DNA from: Candidatus Bathyarchaeota archaeon
GTDB lineage: Archaea; Thermoproteota; Bathyarchaeia; Bathyarchaeales; Bathyarchaeaceae
Direction: 5' to 3'
Length of the DNA: 64,000 nt
NCBI GenBank assembly: GCA_050123155.1
Contig: JASFHP010000005.1
Coordinates: forward strand, 16,551-80,550
The position numbers and the translations under genes were made by a program. The notes under the pieces were generated by a model. The model was not told the DNA's origin. It ran no database searches and saw nothing but the letters and a program-made list of their open reading frames with translations. Each line of letters starts with the position of its first letter. Positions within the stretch are counted from its first letter, which is position 1. Shown here piece by piece: positions 3,334 to 53,749 of this stretch.

Positions 3334-3816
3334 TCATACGTTCGCGATTTGTTTCAGAAACGCCGTGATTACACACTGAAGTATATGTCTTTCTTCATTA
3401 TTCACTTTTCCTATTTGTAGGTCTTTGTCCAATAGCAGTCGTTTGAGATTGTCTGTATCATTAGTAACATATATCAATTTTTCATTTTTCAATGCTTCAG
3501 CCAATTCGACGGATGCTTCATCAAGTTTTTCTCCGTATTTTTTAGACCTAGGGAACACAATTAGTGGTTTAGCAGCTACTAATGTATGTATTATGCTCCC
3601 AGCTCCACCATGAGATACGATAACTCTCGATGATTCTATTCGCTTCTTGAATTGTTTAATTGTTTCAAACCTAAACCATTCCCCATTCTTTGGAATGTAG
3701 GTGGTGAAACCGATTTGAAAAACTACACGTTCCGAGATCTCGCCGGCCACAATATCCATAATTCTTAACAATCGTGTGAACTGATATTTTCCGGTTCCCA
3801 CAGTAACAAAAATCAA
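3334..3816 (-). CDS. Alg13-like glycosyltransferase subunit (GT28 C-terminal domain; EpsF/PssE type)
   Basis: N-terminus MIFVTVGTG, then ..VSHGGAGSI..; size is 160 aa. There is a TTGA start/stop overlap with the Alg14-like gene upstream. Confidence 0.75.
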   Translation of the reverse strand: MIFVTVGTGKYQFTRLLRIMDIVAGEISERVVFQIGFTTYIPKNGEWFRFETIKQFKKRIESSRVIVSHGGAGSIIHTLVAAKPLIVFPRSKKYGEKLDEASVELAEALKNEKLIYVTNDTDNLKRLLLDKDLQIGKVNNEERHILQCVITAFLKQIANV

Positions 3817-4318: not shown

Positions 4319-5317
4319 CTATATGAAATGTGAAAACAGATCCCCAAAATTCTCAAGTATTTTATTTATTTTCTCATTTGCTTGACTTAAAAAAGGATGC
4401 GAAAAATTGGATACAAACAGACTTGTTACAAAGCGATCAGATTTTTTTCTTTTTTTCTGAATTAGTAATCGTTTTTTTCTGATGTAGGATTTCAATTTAA
4501 GTATGTCAGAATAGGCCCTAATTTTTTTGTGGAGTAGCCCTCGAGAAATACAAAAACAAATCGTTGAGATTTCAATAAGCAGAAGGTAAGGGAATAGCAG
4601 AATTAATGTTCTCTTTGAATAGTTCTTCAATAAAGTAATTATTCGATTTCTTTCTGAGAAAAAAATTTTTCTTGGCAAGTTCGAAGAAGACCCCCAGCGA
4701 TGATAGATGACAGCTGAGGGAACAAATAAACTTCTTAGCCCCATCAATCGTGCTCTCCACCCCCAATCTAAATCTTCTTTATACGCAAAATAAATAGGAT
4801 CAAGATAACCAACTTTCTCGATGGTTTTCCGTGGAAACATAACACATGCCCCAGAAGCATAACCAACACAGTCAACATTTTGATACAACGTTTCCGGTTC
4901 GTTTATACCTCTCATTACAGTGAATCCTCCAAAAGTAATCATATTCCCTGCTGAGTTCAGCAATTTTACGTTGTCATATAATAAAATCTTAGGTTGGTAG
5001 AATGCTGCTTTTTGCTTTTTTGCCACTTCAATTAACTTTCGTATACAAGTTTTTTCCATACAAGTGTCGTAATTCAGCAGTATTATGAAATCTCCTACAG
5101 AGTTGTAGATTCCTAGATTATTACCGATACTGAAACCCAAGTTTCTCTTGAGGGTTATGAGACGAATATCTGGAAATCGATTTTTAGCTAATTTAGCACT
5201 TCCATCTGATGAATTATTGTCCACCAATATCACTTCGAAAGGTTCATAATCTGAATCAAAAAGCGATTGTAGACAGTCTAGAATCACCTCTCTTCCATTG
5301 TAATTTAATACAACCAA
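4319..5317 (-). CDS. Glycosyltransferase family 2
   Basis: (VSL)VVLNYNGREV..EVILVDNNSSDGS..; GT-A fold motifs including a DxD-like YKEDLDW. The listed TTG start truncates the first beta-strand, and the frame is open upstream to 5389 (see finding on ATA at 5386). Confidence 0.8.
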   Translation of the reverse strand: MVVLNYNGREVILDCLQSLFDSDYEPFEVILVDNNSSDGSAKLAKNRFPDIRLITLKRNLGFSIGNNLGIYNSVGDFIILLNYDTCMEKTCIRKLIEVAKKQKAAFYQPKILLYDNVKLLNSAGNMITFGGFTVMRGINEPETLYQNVDCVGYASGACVMFPRKTIEKVGYLDPIYFAYKEDLDWGWRARLMGLRSLFVPSAVIYHRWGSSSNLPRKIFFSERNRIITLLKNYSKRTLILLFPYLLLIEISTICFCISRGLLHKKIRAYSDILKLKSYIRKKRLLIQKKRKKSDRFVTSLFVSNFSHPFLSQANEKINKILENFGDLFSHFI

Positions 5318-5382: not shown

Positions 5383-6414
5383 CTATTGTCTACTCTTATG
5401 GTCCAATTGGAGATTTTGAATTTGATGGCGGATCACGTCTTGTAAAATGATCTCATATTCTTCTTTTTTGGTTTTTTGATCTATTGTCAATTTTTTTGTT
5501 CGATAAAGTATTTCTTCTTGTAGAAGTCTCTGTCTAGTGAACATGTCTGCAAATAGGGCCAGTATACCTAGCATAAAACCAATAACCAACATTCCCACGG
5601 TTATTGGTATTAGAGAAGTGAATGGTGAAGTCCTTCCTGTTACGAACCAATTATAAGTAACAAATAGACCAGATGCAAGACCGATCAATAAGAATAGAAG
5701 ACTAATAGACCCAAAGAAGAGGAACGGTCTATAATCTCGTAGAGTTTTAATTATAATACTTAGAGCTTTTGATGTATAGTTATACCAACTTTTTACAACT
5801 CTAGATTTTCCATTATTTCTTTCATCCACTGTTATGGGGACCTCTTTTAATGTTAGCCCCTTAAAAACTAAATCCATAATTGCCTCTTGAGTGTAAGTAA
5901 ATCGCCCCACGGCAGTTAATTTTAAAGCAGCCTCTTTGGAATAAGCTCGGAATCCAGATTGGGAATCGGTGATCTTTTTTCCAATAATAATGCTTAGGAT
6001 CTTAGAAAAAACTCTATTTCCAAGGTTTTTGATCCAATTCATATTGGACTGTTTTGTCTCCTCTAAAAATCTGGAGCCAATAACAAAATCTGCTTCACCA
6101 TTTTCTATCGGTTCAACTAATTTTGGGATATCAATTGGGTCATGTTGTCCATCTGCATCTAATGTCACAATTATATCAGGGTTGTGTTCTAATGCTGCAT
6201 TTATGCCTACTTGAAAAGCTTTTCCTACACCTTTATTGGATTTCAACTTAACAACCTTATCTGCTCCACTATTCATAGCCTTCAAAACCGTACTGTCCCT
6301 CGAACCATCATCAATAACAATAAGAGTGTCAACTATGTTACGAGGAATTCTGACCATCACTTCACCTATAGACTCCTCTTCGTTGAAAGCGGGGATAAGA
6401 ACACAAATTCTCAT
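5383..6414 (-). CDS. DPM1-like GT2 (dolichyl/polyprenyl-phosphate hexose synthase type) with C-terminal transmembrane helices
   Basis: MRICVLIPAFNEEESIGEV..VIDDGSRDST..TLDADGQHDP. Two C-terminal hydrophobic helices (FLFFGSISLLFLLIGLASGLFV; IPITVGMLVIGFMLGILALF). Confidence 0.8.
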   Translation of the reverse strand: MRICVLIPAFNEEESIGEVMVRIPRNIVDTLIVIDDGSRDSTVLKAMNSGADKVVKLKSNKGVGKAFQVGINAALEHNPDIIVTLDADGQHDPIDIPKLVEPIENGEADFVIGSRFLEETKQSNMNWIKNLGNRVFSKILSIIIGKKITDSQSGFRAYSKEAALKLTAVGRFTYTQEAIMDLVFKGLTLKEVPITVDERNNGKSRVVKSWYNYTSKALSIIIKTLRDYRPFLFFGSISLLFLLIGLASGLFVTYNWFVTGRTSPFTSLIPITVGMLVIGFMLGILALFADMFTRQRLLQEEILYRTKKLTIDQKTKKEEYEIILQDVIRHQIQNLQLDHKSRQ

Positions 6415-13551: not shown

Positions 13552-14406
13552 CTAGACGTGACCCTTTTCGATCAAGTATTCACGAAGAGCCTCTTGCCAT
13601 GTTGGCACTTCTATTCCATGTTTAGGCAGCTTTATGCTTTTGAGTGCAGAAAACCGTGGTCTTTTAGCTTTCATAGTTAGCTGTTCTGTCTTTGTTGGCG
13701 TTAAGTCGGGAGTTAAACCTGTGAATTGGAAGATTTGTTCGGCGAACTGATACCATGAGCAGTAGCCTTTGTTTGTAGCGTGATAAACTCCGTATGGAAG
13801 CTGCTTTTCGGCGATTTCTTTTATGATTGAAGAAGCATCTTTGGTGTATGTGGGGCTCATCCACATATCGTCGATGACGGTGATGGGCTCGTTTTTCTTT
13901 GCTTTGGCTATCATCGTTTCCACAAAATTTCCTCCCTTACCGCTTGCTCCTGCCTTGCCGAATACGCTTGCTATTCTGATGATGTAGTGTTTAGAGTTTT
14001 GTTGGATGAAGTGTTCGGCGGCTAGTTTGGAGATTCCGTAAGTGTTGATGGGAGCGGGAACATCGTCTTCGGTGTAGGGTTCCTTTTTTGAGCCATCGAA
14101 AACGTAGTCTGTGCTGATTAATACGGCTGTGGCGTCTATTTCTTTGGTTATCATTGCGACGTTTCTTGCGCCTAAAGCGTTTACGGAAAAAGTTTTCAGA
14201 GGTTCTTCTTCACATTGGTCGGTCTTGTGGAAAGCGGCGGTGTTTATGACCATGTCGGGTTGATGCTTCCTCAGGACAAGGCAGCTGTCGTAATCTGCCA
14301 CTTCAATACAATTATGGATTAAACCGACAACCTCATGTGCAACACCTAAAGTTTTTACCAAATCTGTGCCCAGTTGCCCAGTAGACCCTATAACAGCGAT
14401 TTTCAT
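13552..14406 (-). CDS. rmlD: dTDP-4-dehydrorhamnose reductase
   Basis: MKIAVIGSTGQLGTDL..; STDYVFDG; YGISKLAAE (YxxxK). The start is set at ATG 14406, which forms an ATGA overlap with the upstream gene; the track start at 14472 is an over-extension. Confidence 0.85.
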   Translation of the reverse strand: MKIAVIGSTGQLGTDLVKTLGVAHEVVGLIHNCIEVADYDSCLVLRKHQPDMVINTAAFHKTDQCEEEPLKTFSVNALGARNVAMITKEIDATAVLISTDYVFDGSKKEPYTEDDVPAPINTYGISKLAAEHFIQQNSKHYIIRIASVFGKAGASGKGGNFVETMIAKAKKNEPITVIDDMWMSPTYTKDASSIIKEIAEKQLPYGVYHATNKGYCSWYQFAEQIFQFTGLTPDLTPTKTEQLTMKAKRPRFSALKSIKLPKHGIEVPTWQEALREYLIEKGHV

Positions 14407-15433: not shown

Positions 15434-15949
15434 CTACTTGTAGGGTACTCTGAACCAGTCCCATGGTTTGCCCACGCGAGGATCGTTTTTGTTGCCGTTT
15501 ATTTCTGTGGGAATTACGGTCTGGTCGTTCCATGGTTTGCGATGTTCATCTGGATTCTTGTAGTCATAGAGTCTGTTAACGAAATACACCGTTAAAGACG
15601 GCTCGCTGCTGACGGTTTTTGTTCCATGCAAGTATTTGCCAGGTATTCTTACTACAGTTGGTTTTTCGCCGCTGGCTATTACTTCAGCCATTTTTCCGGT
15701 TTTTTCGTCGTATGCGCAGATTTTCATTGCTCCCTTTAGCACTAGAAAGTGGTCTACCTGTCCTCTCAAATGTTTGTGCCAGGCTCTGACCACGTTGGGG
15801 TAGCTGTAGCTCAGGTTTGCCTGTGTTATCTGTTCGTCTTCAAAGAATTCTTTCCAGTCTTGCCGGAAGGCTTCAGCAAAGAAGCCTCGTTCGTCAGGCA
15901 ACAAATTTATCTCGTATGTTTTTACTCCGTCTAGAGCATATTCTTTCAT
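15434..15949 (-). CDS. rmlC: RmlC-like cupin (dTDP-4-dehydrorhamnose 3,5-epimerase-related)
   Basis: DERGFFAEAFR..VVRAWHKHLRGQVDHFLVLKGAMKICAYD matches the RmlC cupin core. ATGA overlap with rmlA. Confidence 0.75.
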   Translation of the reverse strand: MKEYALDGVKTYEINLLPDERGFFAEAFRQDWKEFFEDEQITQANLSYSYPNVVRAWHKHLRGQVDHFLVLKGAMKICAYDEKTGKMAEVIASGEKPTVVRIPGKYLHGTKTVSSEPSLTVYFVNRLYDYKNPDEHRKPWNDQTVIPTEINGNKNDPRVGKPWDWFRVPYK

Positions 15950-18882: not shown

Positions 18883-21552
18883 CTACTTGCGACGCAACAC
18901 CTTTATGGTTTCAACGAAAAGCATAATGAAAGCAAACAAAAGAAGCAATATCATTTCAGTGATTACACTATCGGACAGATACATGGATAGAATAAAACCA
19001 TTTATAGGTATACTAGGACTCATCGCAGGATACATTTTAATCCAGTCCCCAGTGTATGACACGAGTAAGCCGTGCATCGCAAAAACTGAGGCGAATGTTA
19101 GTACACTCATCACAAAAAGTTTTGTTCGTCGATTGATTAGTTTATATGATGCAAACAAATACGCTAGTCCAAAAACAAGATAGCGTGCAGTAGTTTTAGT
19201 AAGAAACATTGTAGAAGCAAACATCATTACACTTAGTAATAATGCAGCGGTTCCAGGTGATTTTGCAGTCTTTTTTGTGGCAAGATACACTAATGTCAAA
19301 GAAATTATAATAAATATGATTTCTCCTGCAAGTAGATAAGAAACGCCAAAGACTGGGTCTTTGATGTAATCAGGAACCCACATTCGGTCTCTTGAACGTG
19401 TTCCCCCAAAATAAGTAATAAGTGGCCAGATATTGTATCCATCTGGGGATACTGCGGCGCTTCGTGGATATTGAAATGTTACAGTTCCAAATTGGAAAAC
19501 TCTGAAAAACGTTGAAGATATTAGCATTGACGGAGAAGCTCCAGAGGCGATAAATGGCAAGATAACAGCGATTCCTGATGTAAGACCCGTGATGACACCA
19601 TCAATCAGGTTACGGATTCCAAATTTTCGTATTAGCAAAAAGCCCATCAAAGCTGCGGGTGCAAAAGCGGTAGCTTTTACCATGATTGCAAGTGCGAGAC
19701 TGGAAAACGCAGTTTTCGGATGGTTAGATTCGTATGCCCAAAGTGCCAGAAATAGGAATAGAATCAGAAGGGAATCCTGATGACCCCAAACAGCTGCATC
19801 ATAGATTATAAGAGGATTTAGCAGAAAAGCGAGCATTGTAATAAATGATGTTCGCCAAGAACTGCGATATGTTCTCATTATTTTGAAAACAATGAAGCCA
19901 CACGCCAGAGTAGTTATTGTTTGGAACGATTTTACAACAACGGTAAGAAAAGGGTCGTAAACATTTGGATTTGAAGAAAACAAAAAGTAAATGTGCCCAA
20001 TAACGTAATAGTATAATCCTGCAAGGGGCGAGTAAGCAAAAATCGCATGTTGTGTCCCGGCACCAGCGAACATAGAGGCGGCAGAAGTGACGGCAGGACG
20101 CTGATATAGTGACAAAAGACCATATTTTGCCATATCGTAACTCCAAAGTTTTTGAGAAAACATATCAAATGCATGGTCGCCCAGACCAAACAAAAAGAAG
20201 TATATTATGAATATTCCTACAAAGGTCACAGCAAAAAGACATATCTTGGAATGCTCAAAAAGCTTGAGTTTACCGTAAACAGTTTTTATCAATTTAATTA
20301 AATCTGAAAAATAGAAATATACCACAAATCCCGTCACAACTACTAACGCCAAGAAAGCAATAAGGAACACTGGCGTTAATGGAGCATAAGCCAAAGAATG
20401 AGGCAGAATATTGATAGTTAAATCAGAAATATCAACATCTATTTCTCCTTTGGGACTATCAATATTACCTACAGCAAGTTCATTTAACTCCCAAGTTCCC
20501 ACCGAATTGGGAAAATCTACACCCATATGACTTACTGAACTGAAATTAATAGAACCAACAACATCATCAGGATTCAGTAGGTCTAAGAACACTCTTTTAA
20601 CACCAACAAAATCGTCTTTGAGATAAAAAAAGATTCTATTATCCCAATCAGTGTTTAACCACAATCTAAGAGACTTAGTTGTTCCAGAACCATTCAATAC
20701 CAAAAAGATAGAATCATATGACCCCAAGTCAACAGGGGATTCGAAAACATGTTCGATATAGTTTTGAGCATAACTTCCTTCAGCAATAGTGAACGTATCC
20801 TCAAGATGAATTAAAGTTGAATTTCCTTGCCCCTCCCCAAAATTTTTGGCAGTCCAAAAGTTATCTCCAGCCAAAACTAATGAATCAGAAGCCAATGTAC
20901 TTGCACCCGAAACTTCAACCGAAATCAATCGTGATTGGTCTCTGAGAAGACTCTGAACCTCCGATTGAAAGCTTGCAGTTACAGAATGTGTTCTATTATC
21001 AGCAGTTATTGATATCGATTCAACAGAAGATTGAACTGTACTGATTTCAATTAAAAACTCCACAGGTTGACCGATGGAGTACATGAGCATTTTTTCATTT
21101 CGCATTAAATGACCATTTGAATCATGAAGTTCCAAATGAACAAACTGGTCTGAAGAAGAAAAATGAAGTTGAAGTTGATTAGGATTTAGAGGAAATGAAA
21201 CAATTAGACGCACAGGATATGAGTGAAGAGATTGATTGTTAACAGTTACTTTAAAGGAAGCAGTGTAAGGAAGGTCTGAAAGTGCAAGATGTATGTCCTC
21301 GACACCAGGACCAACACTCTTCACGTTAATGTTGGTTGAATTTAACTGAACGTCAAAATTAGAATTTGACTCAATATACAAATTTGATGCGTCAAAACCA
21401 GAAAGAGTCCCATATGACTCAGAAGTAGGCCAAGGATAAATTATAATCCCAATAATAAGACAGACAAGAAGTATCTTCACCAAGTTGATTCTGTCAGTTG
21501 TTATTTGCTTCAAACTACTTATAACATCACAAACTTTTTCAATCATTTTCAA
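18883..21552 (-). CDS. Giant membrane protein: ~400 aa extracytoplasmic N-terminal domain plus a GT-C-like polytopic C-terminal half. It is the terminal gene of glycan operon B.
   Basis: 889 aa. N-terminal anchor, then a beta-rich domain. The C-terminal half has GLGDHAFDM in the first loop and NPLIIYDAAVWGHQDSLLILFLFLALWAY. These resemble loop motifs of GT-C / DUF2029 / PMT_2-type lipid-linked-sugar transferases, recognised by pattern only. Confidence 0.7.
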   Translation of the reverse strand: MKMIEKVCDVISSLKQITTDRINLVKILLVCLIIGIIIYPWPTSESYGTLSGFDASNLYIESNSNFDVQLNSTNINVKSVGPGVEDIHLALSDLPYTASFKVTVNNQSLHSYPVRLIVSFPLNPNQLQLHFSSSDQFVHLELHDSNGHLMRNEKMLMYSIGQPVEFLIEISTVQSSVESISITADNRTHSVTASFQSEVQSLLRDQSRLISVEVSGASTLASDSLVLAGDNFWTAKNFGEGQGNSTLIHLEDTFTIAEGSYAQNYIEHVFESPVDLGSYDSIFLVLNGSGTTKSLRLWLNTDWDNRIFFYLKDDFVGVKRVFLDLLNPDDVVGSINFSSVSHMGVDFPNSVGTWELNELAVGNIDSPKGEIDVDISDLTINILPHSLAYAPLTPVFLIAFLALVVVTGFVVYFYFSDLIKLIKTVYGKLKLFEHSKICLFAVTFVGIFIIYFFLFGLGDHAFDMFSQKLWSYDMAKYGLLSLYQRPAVTSAASMFAGAGTQHAIFAYSPLAGLYYYVIGHIYFLFSSNPNVYDPFLTVVVKSFQTITTLACGFIVFKIMRTYRSSWRTSFITMLAFLLNPLIIYDAAVWGHQDSLLILFLFLALWAYESNHPKTAFSSLALAIMVKATAFAPAALMGFLLIRKFGIRNLIDGVITGLTSGIAVILPFIASGASPSMLISSTFFRVFQFGTVTFQYPRSAAVSPDGYNIWPLITYFGGTRSRDRMWVPDYIKDPVFGVSYLLAGEIIFIIISLTLVYLATKKTAKSPGTAALLLSVMMFASTMFLTKTTARYLVFGLAYLFASYKLINRRTKLFVMSVLTFASVFAMHGLLVSYTGDWIKMYPAMSPSIPINGFILSMYLSDSVITEMILLLLFAFIMLFVETIKVLRRK

Positions 21553-21575: not shown

Positions 21576-22322
21576 TTATTTGCGGGTCATTATTACTAGC
21601 GAAATTGTGCCGTGATTAGGTAATACTAGGTTAGCGAATCTTTCAAAAAGGTCAACAAGAACGACAGCGTTCTTTGAAAGGAACTTGTCTGCAAAGGGTT
21701 GCAAAACGTGATAACTTCTGCAAGTGATTGTTGATGAATCAAACTTTAGAAATTTTTGTTTAAGCTTCGAAATAGGAAAGATGTGAAAATGTCCCACAGT
21801 TCTATCAATACTAGCAAGTTTTTTAGGAAAAAGGAAGCCCCATATTCCTCTAAAAACTCCTTCGCATGGAGTAGTTATTACTACCAACCCTTTAGAAACA
21901 CGATGAAGCTCAGAAATAACCTTATCATACGCAGGTATGTGCTCAATAACATCTGCACAGATAACTATGTCAAAAAAGTTGGGTCTAAAAGGAAGCAAAT
22001 CAGAACTAGCACAGATTCGAGCATCAACTAAGCTTCGAACTCGTTTCAGATAAGATTTTGAGATATCCAAACTCACAACATTGCCATCTAAATTTTTTGC
22101 ATATACACTAAGTTCGCCAGAGCCACAACCAGCATCAAGCACAAGATTGTTCTGACGAAGCTCAGAATCCAGCAATTCAAAGACTAAGGACGCTTTCTTT
22201 TGATGATAGCGTCTCTCCCAAAAAGCACTAGAATTATATCGATTAGCATTGGACCCTTCTTGTTCATAGAAAGATCGAATATCAATGCATTGATTATCTT
22301 CAAGTTTGGTCTGCAGTATTAT
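21576..22322 (-). CDS. Class I SAM-dependent methyltransferase
   Basis: VLDAGCGSGELS (motif I) and ADVIEHI. The first canonical start (TTG 22175) leaves only 11 aa before motif I. The frame is open and protein-like for 49 more codons up to a TGA at 22328-22326, so the start is placed provisionally at ATA 22322 (see finding). Confidence 0.7.
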   Translation of the reverse strand: MILQTKLEDNQCIDIRSFYEQEGSNANRYNSSAFWERRYHQKKASLVFELLDSELRQNNLVLDAGCGSGELSVYAKNLDGNVVSLDISKSYLKRVRSLVDARICASSDLLPFRPNFFDIVICADVIEHIPAYDKVISELHRVSKGLVVITTPCEGVFRGIWGFLFPKKLASIDRTVGHFHIFPISKLKQKFLKFDSSTITCRSYHVLQPFADKFLSKNAVVLVDLFERFANLVLPNHGTISLVIMTRK

Positions 22323-23467
22323 GCCTCATTTAAAGATAGCGTATCATTAAGCAGGTGGTCAAATTTGAGGGCTGATTTTTCCCATGTGAAGTTTTGAGCC
22401 CACGAAAATGCGTTCTTTGATAGTTTAGTCCACAATTCTTTGTCGACAAACAGTTTTGTTAATGCATCCGAGAATGCTTCAATGTCGCCGTATGGATAAA
22501 CTAGTCCATTATGGCCGTTTATCACGACATCTCCTGGAACCCCATCACTAACAACAACAGGAGTGCCACACCGATTAGCTTCCATCACAACAATACTAAA
22601 ACCTTCCACAGGAGAAGGCTGAACCAAAACACTTGCTCGTTCCAACAAATCAAGCTTTTCGGCTTCTGAGATGTTAAATCTGAACTCCACGTTATCACTT
22701 ACATCCAAATTTTCAGCTAAACCACGAAGTTCATCAACATAATCAGCGTCAATTTCACTGACTTTACCTGCAATAACAAGCGTGTAGTTTTCGTTAGTTT
22801 TTTTAATGACCTCCGCAAGCGCCATAATCGCATGGTCAGGACGTTTATACCGTCGTATTTTTCCCAACCAAACGATAACATTTTCTCGCTCCTCACTCAT
22901 CTTCGCATTATCAAACAACCCTCCAACACCATCATAAATTACCCGTATGCTCTCGCGGTCAAATCCGAGAGTTGCAAGCTTTTCTCTAGCGCCTTTTGAC
23001 GGATTTATAATAGTGCGCTTCCTGTACAATCTCGCTTGAAAGAACTCAAAAAAAGAAAGAACAGCAGCCACAGGATAGGAGTACTGTTCATGAAAGATTT
23101 TATCATGCTTTTGATGCCAAACTGCAACTAATGGCTCCTTAACATACACTGTGCAAAAAAATGGAAAACGCTGACCGCCAATAGCTTCTTCTACAACAAC
23201 ATCAAAATTGCCTTTCAATCTTTTGATGTACATCTTCAAGATTTTAAAAGGCAAACTCCAAACACCTTTTAACCTAACAAACTCAACTCCATCAATTACT
23301 TCTCTCTTTTTAGAATCTGGAAAACTACTGCAAATAATGGTTACGTGATTGCCTAAGTTGGACAAACCTTTGGCTAATTCCCAGAGATAAAAATCTCCGC
23401 CCACTGCTGATGGATTCATAAAATCTCGGTAAACAATAAATAAAACTCGTAATTGAGGTCCATCCAT
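22319..23467 (-). CDS. GT4-family (GT-B fold) glycosyltransferase
   Basis: ..VGGDFYLWELAKGLSNLGHVT..; C-terminal EGFSIVVMEANRCGTPVVVSD (E-x7-E region). Length is 382 aa. Confidence 0.85.
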   Translation of the reverse strand: MDGPQLRVLFIVYRDFMNPSAVGGDFYLWELAKGLSNLGNHVTIICSSFPDSKKREVIDGVEFVRLKGVWSLPFKILKMYIKRLKGNFDVVVEEAIGGQRFPFFCTVYVKEPLVAVWHQKHDKIFHEQYSYPVAAVLSFFEFFQARLYRKRTIINPSKGAREKLATLGFDRESIRVIYDGVGGLFDNAKMSEERENVIVWLGKIRRYKRPDHAIMALAEVIKKTNENYTLVIAGKVSEIDADYVDELRGLAENLDVSDNVEFRFNISEAEKLDLLERASVLVQPSPVEGFSIVVMEANRCGTPVVVSDGVPGDVVINGHNGLVYPYGDIEAFSDALTKLFVDKELWTKLSKNAFSWAQNFTWEKSALKFDHLLNDTLSLNEA

Positions 23468-51754: not shown

Positions 51755-51763
51755 TTTATATAA
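51755..51763 (+). promoter_or_regulatory. Candidate archaeal TATA box (TTTATATAA) with purine-rich BRE-like AGAAAC upstream, for the his operon
   Basis: Consensus-like TTTATATA in the 95-bp divergent intergenic region, about 53 nt upstream of ATG 51816 and 66 nt upstream of the hisZ frame. Confidence 0.4.
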
Positions 51764-51828
51764 GATGTGCGGAATATGGGTTTCAACCCACAAATTACCC
51801 ATTGGAGGACAAACGATGACAAGGAGGA

Positions 51829-53106
51829 ATAACATTCACCAGACTACACACCCCAAAAGGAACAAGAGACTACCTGCCTAACGAAGTCAAAAAATACCGC
51901 TACATCGAGAACCAGCTGAGAAAAACTTTTGAACTATGGAACTACAGCGAAGTCCGCTCCCCCACCATCGAATTCGTCGAAACCCTATCCACAGGCGTGG
52001 GGTCCGAGCTCGTAGACACCATGTTCAAGTTCCAAGACTTCGACGGAAAGCTTCTGGCATTAAGAGCAGAAATGACGGCGCCAGTCGCCAGAATCGTGAC
52101 AACCAGAATGTCGTCTGCGCCAGAGCCGATTCGCCTATTTTACGTCAACAATGTTTTCAGGTACAGCCAATCTTACCTCAAGAGAGAACGAGAGTTCTGT
52201 CAGGCAGGAGTTGAACTTGTAGGCTGCAACACGCCAGAGGCTGACGGGGAGATACTGTCTCTGTTTATATCATCCCTCAAGCAGGTGGGCTTACAGGAAG
52301 TGAGAATTGACTTAGGTCACGCCAGCCTACTTAAAGACCTATTGAATGCGGCGGGATTGGATGAGCAGCAGAAAGTTTCTGTTTATGGTCTCCTAGCGTG
52401 CCGAGACTTGGTGGGACTAAAGAAGTTCATGGATCAGAACAGTTTTCCCTCAAACTTAAGAGATGCTTTTCTTCAGCTTTCTCGCTGCAGAAGATTAGGT
52501 GAAGTTTCGTCAATTTCTCTCAACGGCTCAAAATACGATGAACTGAACAAGCAGATAGAAAGTCTCTTGGAGCTTCAGGAAATCCTGTCGAACTATGAGA
52601 TAGATGACTTTGTGTTCTTCGACTTTTCTTTGACAAAAAAGATTGAATACTACACTGGGATGGTGTTCGAGGCTTCTGTTCCAAACTTGGGTCTGCCCCT
52701 CGGCGGCGGAGGCAGATACGACAACTTTATCGAAAAATTTGGAAAACTGAGGCTGCCCGCAACAGGCTTCGCTCTGGAAATAGGGAAAATCCTCCAAGCC
52801 CTCACCTCACAGGGTTTCGAAATTCCAGAATCCTCGAAAGCTAAGGTTGTTGTGGCATCCAAATTCAGGGACGCGGCAGTAGAGGCGGTTAAGGCTCTTC
52901 GTGAATCCGGAGTCATCGCCTCACTGGAAATAACAAAGAGATGCCTAGAGAAAACGATGGAATATGGAAAGCTTACGGAGACGGATTACGTGGTTTCGGT
53001 TGGTTCATCCCTTAAATCTCCATTAACAGTTTACGACGTGAAATCAAACGTTTCAAGAGACGTAATGCTCGAAACTTTCTTGGAAGAAGTCGGAGGTCAA
53101 TGTTGA
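51829..53106 (+). CDS. hisZ: ATP phosphoribosyltransferase regulatory subunit (HisRS-like)
   Basis: (I)TFTRLHTPKGTRDYLPNEVKKYRYIENQL.. is the HisS/HisZ N-terminal motif, and it lies upstream of the first canonical in-frame start (GTG 51997). There is no anticodon-binding domain, and a short hisG follows. The start codon is unresolved (ATA 51829, or a frameshift from ATG 51816). Confidence 0.8.
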   Translation: MTFTRLHTPKGTRDYLPNEVKKYRYIENQLRKTFELWNYSEVRSPTIEFVETLSTGVGSELVDTMFKFQDFDGKLLALRAEMTAPVARIVTTRMSSAPEPIRLFYVNNVFRYSQSYLKREREFCQAGVELVGCNTPEADGEILSLFISSLKQVGLQEVRIDLGHASLLKDLLNAAGLDEQQKVSVYGLLACRDLVGLKKFMDQNSFPSNLRDAFLQLSRCRRLGEVSSISLNGSKYDELNKQIESLLELQEILSNYEIDDFVFFDFSLTKKIEYYTGMVFEASVPNLGLPLGGGGRYDNFIEKFGKLRLPATGFALEIGKILQALTSQGFEIPESSKAKVVVASKFRDAAVEAVKALRESGVIASLEITKRCLEKTMEYGKLTETDYVVSVGSSLKSPLTVYDVKSNVSRDVMLETFLEEVGGQC

Positions 53107-53107
53107 A

Positions 53108-53749
53108 ATGAATAAGAAGATTCGCATCGCGATACCCAACAAGGGTCGCCTGAAGGAACCGGCGATTGAGGCGCTGGGGCGGGCAGGAATAGAAGTCTTG
53201 GAAGAGGATAGAGCTTACGTTTCCAAGACCTCTGACCCAAAATTCGAGGCAATCTTCGCCAGAGCCAACGACATACCAGTCTATGTACACTATGGTGCAG
53301 TAGACTTGGGCATCACCGGTCGCGACCTGATTCTGGAAAGAGACGCAGATGTTCTCGAGTTACTGGACCTAGAATTCGGAAAGTGCACTCTCGTTGCTGC
53401 AGTTCCAGAAGATTCAACCATAAATTCTGTGGGTGAGGTTCCTGCTCTGGCAAGGGTTGCAACTGGATTCCCGAACATAACCAGAAAGTTTTTCGAAAAA
53501 ACTGGAAAACAGGTGGAAGTTTTGGAGGTCAGCGGAACAGCAGAACTTGCGCCTAAACTGGGTTTGGCTCAGATAATCGTAGACCTCACATCAACTGGCG
53601 AAACTCTGAGAAAAAACAAGCTCAGAATAATTGGAACAATTCTTGAATCAACCAGCAGACTAGCCTGCAACAAAATCGCGTACAGAACCTTCGAGAAGCA
53701 AATCAGCGAGCTTCTAGCCAGAATGCGAGGAGGGACAGAAGAAGAATGA
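53108..53749 (+). CDS. hisG: ATP phosphoribosyltransferase, short form
   Basis: IRIAIPNKGRL.., DIPVYV..G..DLGITG.D, DLTSTGETLR. At 213 aa it is the short form, consistent with dependence on HisZ. Confidence 0.92.
   Translation: MNKKIRIAIPNKGRLKEPAIEALGRAGIEVLEEDRAYVSKTSDPKFEAIFARANDIPVYVHYGAVDLGITGRDLILERDADVLELLDLEFGKCTLVAAVPEDSTINSVGEVPALARVATGFPNITRKFFEKTGKQVEVLEVSGTAELAPKLGLAQIIVDLTSTGETLRKNKLRIIGTILESTSRLACNKIAYRTFEKQISELLARMRGGTEEE

Follow-up and report, generated by a model that had tools for sequence, protein, structure and literature searches.

The analyzed stretch, 64,000 nucleotides (nt) of contig JASFHP010000005.1 from a Candidatus Bathyarchaeota archaeon (below, the window), contains a gene for a class I S-adenosylmethionine (SAM)-dependent methyltransferase that directly follows a GT4 glycosyltransferase gene. 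No ATG, GTG, or TTG occurs in the 49-50 codons ahead of its first canonical start, TTG 22175, and at the junction with the GT4 gene the frame carries three near-cognate codons, ATA, ATA, and CTG. The features of this locus, together with two further genes of the window that are considered below, are listed in Table 1. The gene order, that is, two GT2 genes, the GT4 gene, the methyltransferase gene, and a gene encoding a membrane protein of ~890 amino acids (aa), is kept in the related loci L001, L087, L104-106, and L107, and the GT4 and methyltransferase genes are also adjacent on the contig carrying the homolog P0013.

Table 1. Positions of the methyltransferase locus features and of two other genes in the window
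Feature	Positions	Strand	Remarks
Methyltransferase open reading frame (ORF)	21576..22322	(-)	248 codons from ATA 22322, 246 from CTG 22316; stop TAA 21578-21576
GT4 glycosyltransferase gene, upstream	22319..23467	(-)	382 aa; stop TAA 22321-22319; Pfam Glycos_transf_1 (E 1.8e-35) and Glyco_transf_4
Polytopic membrane protein gene, downstream	18883..21552	(-)	889 aa; homologs have a weak MptA_B family match; last gene of the cluster
Near-cognate cluster	22314..22322	(-)	ATA 22322-22320, ATA 22319-22317, CTG 22316-22314; adjacent, in frame
GAGG, Shine-Dalgarno-like	22324..22327	(-)	within the final codons of GT4
In-frame TGA	22326..22328	(-)	closes the methyltransferase frame upstream; bounds all possible starts
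TTG, first canonical start codon	22173..22175	(-)	Leu51 of the open frame, inside predicted helix 35-55
ATT 22286-22284 and ATT 22280-22278	22278..22286	(-)	internal near-cognates; 32 and 38 nt past the GT4 stop
hisZ, ATP phosphoribosyltransferase regulatory subunit	51817-53106	(+)	start region 51820-51840; no canonical start
GT2 glycosyltransferase gene	4319-5317, open frame to 5389	(-)	first canonical start TTG 5317, inside the beta-1 strand

The methyltransferase frame upstream of TTG 22175

The original prediction placed the first canonical start at TTG 22175, 11 residues before the SAM motif I (VLDAGCGSG), and both this placement and the peptide that it quoted for the upstream part of the frame agree exactly with the sequence. 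The openness of this part is only mildly unusual, as 3.4% of the in-gene 50-codon windows here contain no ATG, GTG, or TTG, and hence the meaningful signal is homology. The protein search with the 249-aa open frame retrieved ~25 homologs of 240-265 aa, covering 93-99% of the query, along with the Joint Genome Institute (JGI) call of the window gene itself (P0001, 199 aa). The extension is conserved in ~23 homologs as FYExEG...RYDSxxFWERRYHxKKA, followed by a helix leading into motif I, and the window protein keeps 15 of the 15 family-invariant alignment columns. The hidden Markov model (HMM) of the family, constructed from the homologs alone with the window protein left out, aligns to residues 11-249, that is, from a point upstream of both ATT codons. 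Besides motif I, the protein has the Pfam domains expected of a class I SAM-dependent methyltransferase (Methyltransf_11/25/31/23, E-values from 1e-16 to 1e-12, with 1.3e-16 for Methyltransf_11), and the Methyltransf_23 match, residues 37-192, begins 14 residues upstream of TTG 22175.

The AlphaFold2 model built on the homolog alignment (mean predicted local distance difference test score 92, predicted TM-score 0.88) has a Rossmann-like seven-strand fold with an N-terminal helical cap. Its residues 1-10 are disordered, and two confident helices, 16-26 and 35-55, which precede the strand 61-65, lie against the Rossmann core. In this model, a start at TTG 22175, which is residue 51, removes the first helix and most of the second one. 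The suspicion that this TTG is not the real start is thus borne out by the conservation of the extension in ~23 homologs, by the HMM alignment from residue 11, and by the helix 35-55 that would be cut.

A fold search against the PDB produced more than 1000 methyltransferase matches, the best of them, RebM and AtmM, being aligned over the full length with E-values of about 1e-13. Both are sugar O-methyltransferases, and the window gene belongs to a glycosyltransferase operon; however, the identity is 19-21%, and TM-scores of 0.56-0.66 do not set these two apart from other class I methyltransferases. The fold matches combined with the operon setting suggest that the window gene probably encodes a sugar O-methyltransferase. 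The profile search of the genome contigs with the family alignment picked generic SAM motifs and found only distant unrelated methyltransferases. The pattern FWERRYHxK, scanned for in metagenomes, hit 16 loci, one of which (L101) contains a full-length homolog, the rest having short ORFs or no in-frame FWERRYH.

The junction with the GT4 gene in the window and in relatives

The GT4 gene ends with ...AAT GAG GCA TAA. The methyltransferase frame is one base out of phase with it, is open from 22325, and reads, after the upstream TGA, GGC ATA(22322) ATA(22319) CTG(22316) CAG ACC AAA. ATA 22322 has a 4-nt overlap with the GT4 stop (ATAA), as originally described, ATA 22319 has a 1-nt overlap (TAATA), and CTG 22316 lies 2 nt past the stop. 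The earlier statement that ATA is the only codon available at the junction does not hold, given the three adjacent near-cognates and the ATT codons at 22286 and 22280. The two genes are co-directional and, at -4 or -1 nt, have the overlap geometry of translationally coupled pairs, but with ATA, ATA, and CTG in place of a canonical restart codon. Tight overlaps are frequent in the window: the ATGA/TTGA overlaps noted previously at 3813-3816, 14403-14406, and 53746-53749 are real, and further ones occur at 6411-6414 and 15946-15949.

The alignment of homologs proposed with the original prediction shows that most of their called N-termini precede the FW motif by 29-35 codons. The codons ATA, ATA, and CTG of the window are at -33, -32, and -31 relative to this motif, and the codons ATT 22286 and 22280 are at -21 and -19. 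Thus a near-cognate codon stands at the start position of the family, ahead of a coding extension supported by homology. The junction reads GAG GAA GTA TAG-TG TTG in L104-106 and AAG GAA TAG-TG TTG in L107; in both cases the methyltransferase frame is ATA GTG TTG, the called start is the GTG, which overlaps the GT4 stop TAG by 1 nt, and TTG is the next codon. The window junction, GAG GCA TAA-TA CTG, is ATA ATA CTG in the same frame, so that ATA 22319 is the positional homolog of the GTG, and CTG 22316 that of the TTG. The counterpart of ATA 22322 exists in L104-106 and L107 as well, being made of the last base of GT4 and the TA of its stop. Since the called start in these relatives is the GTG, the first ATA is ancestral and does not serve as their start. 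A G-to-A change in the base shared by the stop and the GTG would have yielded the common TAATG form as an intermediate.

Other relatives have canonical starts at or near the same place. The identity of the GT2, GT4, and membrane proteins (70-79%) makes L001 the sister of the window, L087 and L104 being the outgroups. In L001, a TTG occupies the position of the CTG, 14 nt past the GT4 stop, and CTT stands at the position of ATT 22286. The TTG start of the L087 protein (P0065, MDIRSFYE) aligns with ATT 22286, and on the contig carrying P0013 the GT4 and methyltransferase genes overlap by 4 nt. On contig L005 (595-1644, P0015), the C-terminal part of GT4 is in frame with the methyltransferase in a product of 349 aa, the N-terminal part of GT4 being called separately. 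It is either a natural fusion or a damaged or low-quality contig; the fusion, if real, supports a functional link between GT4 and the methyltransferase.

The methyltransferase frame has no frameshift or stop in 248 codons, and no lesion beyond the absent start, as would be expected of a start-loss pseudogene, was found. In the relative-rate test, the identity of the methyltransferase to the outgroups L087 and L104 was 63% and 61% for the window, and 55% and 53% for the sister L001. As the window protein is nearer to the outgroups, it has not evolved faster and its constraint is not relaxed. Over 5547 nt that include the junction, the Logan contig SRR11698124_132232 matches the window with 100% identity. 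An assembler artefact is therefore unlikely, though this contig may stem from one and the same population, or even from reads shared with the window assembly.

Public annotations of the gene disagree. The start is TTG 22175 in the JGI annotation (199 aa), GTG 22142 in the Logan annotation (188 aa), and ATT 22280 in that of the NCBI Prokaryotic Genome Annotation Pipeline (PGAP; MGD9131099.1, 234 aa, MRSFYEQ...). None of the three N-termini matches the start at the GT4 junction supported by homology, and all three are probably wrong. Archaeal gene finders rely on AUG, GUG, and UUG, and here three pipelines have assigned three lengths to one gene.

The GAGG motif (AAGGA in L107) is present in or at the end of GT4 in all relatives examined (L001, L087, L104, and L107), in differing codon contexts. 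The window junction, too, has this Shine-Dalgarno (SD)-like motif within the 3' end of the upstream gene. In window genes with a clear SD (GGAGG or GAGG), the start codon follows the first base of the GAGG at a distance of 11-17 nt. The corresponding distances at the junction are 11, 8, and 5 nt for CTG, ATA 22319, and ATA 22322, respectively, leaving gaps of 7, 4, and 1 nt. Hence the SD range of the window fits only CTG 22316, at its low end. No SD-like motif was found upstream of ATT 22286 or ATT 22280. A TATA-like sequence, CTTTAAAT, is located within the GT4 end at 22336-22329 (-), the junction codons following ~10-15 nt downstream; it is not conserved in L104. As an internal promoter, it could in principle give a short-leader transcript starting downstream of the ATA, ATA, and CTG, which would favor the ATT codons.

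Initiation at the junction and its alternatives

The identical junction in the second assembly and the constraint that has not been relaxed indicate that the gene has most likely remained alive, with its start at the GT4 junction. We consider it reasonably probable that the methyltransferase gene is functional and that its translation begins at the ATA-ATA-CTG cluster, aided by the stop-start overlap, the GAGG motif, or both. The gene would be an intact member of a conserved Bathyarchaeial glycan-synthesis operon, GT2-GT2-GT4-methyltransferase-large membrane protein. Its ancestral canonical starts at the GT4 stop, a GTG overlapping the stop by 1 nt and then a TTG, would have mutated to ATA and CTG in the window lineage. 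Translation would then proceed from ATA 22322, ATA 22319, or CTG 22316, being initiated by ribosomes that have just terminated on GT4 and/or are positioned by the GAGG at its end, and the output would probably be lower than from a canonical start.

Computation does not discriminate among these codons, each of which has its own supporting argument. For ATA 22322, these are the -4 overlap, a GAGG-N-ATA geometry like that of the hisZ gene described below, and the ancestral position directly upstream of the lost canonical start. ATA 22319 is homologous to the GTG in the -1 overlap, and CTG 22316 combines homology to the TTG with the most suitable SD spacing. The choice alters just one or two residues of the disordered tail, the predicted N-termini being (M/I)ILQTKLEDNQCIDIR, MLQTK..., and MQTK... 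The original prediction of a start at ATA 22322 within the ATAA overlap is therefore upheld as to the translation of the extension, the start at the GT4 junction, and the geometry of a coupled pair, but the specific codon is not established. Use of ATA as such is favored by hisZ, which retains only an ATA in the same GAGG-N-ATA arrangement. Against ATA 22322 in particular stand the relatives, in which the first ATA is not the start, and the SD spacing, which fits only CTG.

Overlaps of -4 and -1 nt are known to couple translation by termination-reinitiation in Haloferax and Escherichia coli, in most cases together with an SD motif (Huber et al. 2019, PMC6728339), whereas a spacing of about 20 nt nearly abolishes the coupling (Huber et al. 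2023, PMC10666635). The window junction resembles the pairs of these two studies in the co-directional genes, in the 4-nt or 1-nt overlap, and in the GAGG in the upstream 3' end, and its relatives show the canonical form (TAGTG; 4-nt overlap). It differs in having ATA as the overlap codon and CTG 2 nt on, near-cognate restart codons not being among the systems shown there to couple.

Two E. coli genes, infC and pcnB, are the only ones in that species with confirmed non-canonical starts, AUU in both cases (bioRxiv 10.1101/063800). The methyltransferase shares with them a conserved N-terminus without AUG, GUG, or UUG and a near-cognate codon at the start position. The AUU of infC is conserved and autoregulatory through IF3. 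In contrast, the near-cognates of the window are lineage-specific replacements of GTG and TTG, in an archaeal host and with no evident regulatory logic. PGAP also annotates non-canonical starts on this same contig, ATT for the methyltransferase and ATA for hisZ, but ATT 22280 comes 12-14 codons after the junction codons, and such an automatic call is not evidence of use. In total, a classic coupling geometry with a near-cognate restart codon, together with hisZ within 64 kb, is unusual but not unprecedented in kind.

Several facts weigh against initiation at the junction codons. The documented archaeal start codons are AUG, GUG, and UUG (PMC7531240), and in E. coli AUA, AUC, AUU, and CUG initiate at 1-2% of the AUG level (bioRxiv 10.1101/063800). 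The near-cognate start is not conserved among orthologs, as the relatives use GTG, TTG, or ATG. The three lines of evidence that bear on the codon point to three different codons, and PGAP picked a fourth one, ATT 22280. Because residues 1-10 are disordered and show little conservation, the fold would tolerate a start a few codons downstream. The identical ATA-ATA-CTG junction is found only in 100% identical copies, which leaves room for a very recent silencing or loss of expression, and the closest non-identical sequence is just 64% identical, so that the order and age of the substitutions are not readable.

A recent start loss, which would have left the gene silent or yielding a truncated, probably inactive product from TTG 22175 or GTG 22142, as an incipient pseudogene, agrees with the absence of a canonical start, with the poor efficiency of near-cognate starts in the tested organisms (10.1101/063800), and with the canonical starts kept in all relatives. 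Moreover, functional genes only extremely rarely exchange a canonical start for CUG or AUU, the rate between close genomes being about 1e-5 to 4e-4 per start (PMC5622118), and the JGI and Logan gene callers offer only truncated products. Nevertheless, we regard such silencing as unlikely, as the 248 codons have neither frameshift nor stop, all invariant residues are present, and the window lineage has evolved at a lower rate than the sister L001, whose start is canonical. Further, three substitutions fall within the 6 nt that make up the two ancestral start codons and the rest of the gene is unscathed, a pattern more readily understood if initiation had by then shifted to another start, and hisZ is in the same condition in two strains. 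A sequencing or assembly error, or a minority variant, hiding a true ATG or GTG at 22319-22317 or TTG at 22316-22314 is very improbable. A single G-to-A error at 22317 would turn TAATG into TAATA, but at least two separate substitutions are required to account for both the ATA and the CTG; besides, the Logan SRR11698124 assembly is identical over 5.5 kb, and the parallel hisZ start is identical in a second strain that has 7 single-nucleotide polymorphisms (SNPs) elsewhere.

Initiation within the extension, at ATT 22280, where the PGAP protein of 234 aa begins, or at ATT 22286, which corresponds exactly to the TTG start of L087, would be compatible with the equally short N-termini of P0022, P0025, and P0065 and with the structured part of the AlphaFold2 model, which begins at about residue 14-16. 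Neither codon has an SD-like motif, however, and both are beyond the coupling distance of the tested systems (PMC10666635) and are disfavored by the loss of coupling at ~20 nt. In addition, the family HMM begins at residue 11, most homologs start 8-14 residues further upstream, and the sister L001 has CTT at the position of ATT 22286; we thus consider an internal ATT start rather unlikely. The last alternative is a fusion of GT4 and the methyltransferase through a programmed -1 frameshift of the ribosome right ahead of the GT4 stop. In its favor are the L005 product P0015, in which the GT4 C-terminus runs in frame into the methyltransferase, and the methyltransferase frame being -1 relative to GT4. 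It was rejected as hardly credible: just two GT4 codons, GAG GCA, are open in both frames, a slippery X XXY YYZ site is absent, the re-pairing required of tRNA-Ala (from GCA to GGC) and of tRNA-Glu (from GAG to UGA) is impossible, and the closest relatives carry separate genes with their own starts.

Other genes without a canonical start

The hisZ gene offers a clear parallel case. Its first canonical start is GTG 51997, whereas position 1 of the Pfam tRNA-synt_His model corresponds to residue 14 of the open frame, 46 residues upstream of this codon. The frame reads TGA CAA GGA GGA ATA(51829) ACA TTC ACC AGA. The homolog P0066 from L108, 81% identical, begins with MFTKLHTPKG, encoded as GGA GGA ATA ATG TTC ACA. 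The ATG of L108 is replaced by ACA in the window, leaving only ATA 51829, which follows AGGAGG after 1 nt and is the start annotated by PGAP (MGD9131134.1, 425 aa). The start region is identical in a second strain, L109, from another metagenome (7 SNPs in 2986 nt). In this strain, the codon at 51997 is GTA rather than GTG, and thus GTG 51997 is an internal valine codon. The hisZ product is needed with the short form of HisG, and the his operon is otherwise intact.

Initiation of hisZ from the well-placed but out-of-frame ATG 51816, followed by a +1 shift or an indel in the CCCCAAAAGG run, was considered and rejected. The N-terminus of P0066, MFTKLHTPKG, matches the in-frame TFTRLHTPKG of the window, and hence the hisZ frame is already coding upstream of this run. 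The region upstream of hisZ (51755-51881, (+) strand) contains a near-perfect archaeal TATA box, TTTATATAA (51755-51763), then GGAGGA (51804-51809), and then the ATG 51816, which forms ATGA with the in-frame TGA and opens a 21-codon ORF overlapping the hisZ start. The TATA box, the SD motif, the ATGA, and the small ORF are all kept in L108 (1700-1850), and the arrangement suggests that the 21-codon ORF may be a regulatory upstream ORF.

The third probable start-less gene, judged by its alignments, is that of a GT2 glycosyltransferase. Most of the 150 homolog alignments listed begin 2-14 residues upstream of its TTG 5317, and the NPLVS encoded there corresponds to SPLVS and NPLIS in relatives. 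The 24 open codons upstream of the TTG include no ATG, GTG, or TTG; ATA 5386-5384 forms an ATAG overlap with the TAG of the preceding gene, and ATC, ATT, ATA, and ATT codons follow further in. Both NCBI and JGI retain the TTG (332 aa).

All ORFs of the window were screened for long open stretches ahead of the first canonical start, followed by a Pfam test. Among 27 further ORFs with at least 7 open upstream codons, the screen found no more start-less genes, a weak negative, as Pfam domains rarely reach the N-termini.

The start-less genes, two or three of about 66 in the window, form the basis of a broader reading, which we regard as plausible but less likely than not. The selection on start codons could be relaxed in this Bathyarchaeial lineage, AUA, and perhaps CUG or AUU, being a working start in a few percent of genes. 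Canonical starts would then decay where an in-frame ATA sits directly upstream: ATA-GTG-TTG would have become ATA-ATA-CTG in the methyltransferase gene, ATA-ATG would have become ATA-ACA in hisZ, and the ATAG overlap would be the corresponding site in the GT2 gene.

The methyltransferase and hisZ genes have both lost their canonical starts and are nevertheless intact, though constraint was tested for the methyltransferase only. This suggests either that stop-start coupling tolerates near-cognate restart codons in archaea or that this lineage initiates at AUA more readily than the model organisms do. Either possibility, if true, bears on the variation of start-codon stringency (aIF1, aIF2, and the initiator tRNA) among archaea and on the number of truncated proteins in annotations of metagenome-assembled genomes. 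If the genes are silently dying instead, the matter is an ordinary annotation problem.

Weak starts are unusually numerous in the window as a whole: the first canonical starts of ~66 long ORFs are ATG in 27 cases, TTG in 26, and GTG in 13. The share of weak starts is inflated by taking the first start of each ORF. For instance, the RmlD-like gene starts, according to Pfam, at ATG 14406 and not at GTG 14472. The only tRNA gene of the window is that of tRNA-Glu.

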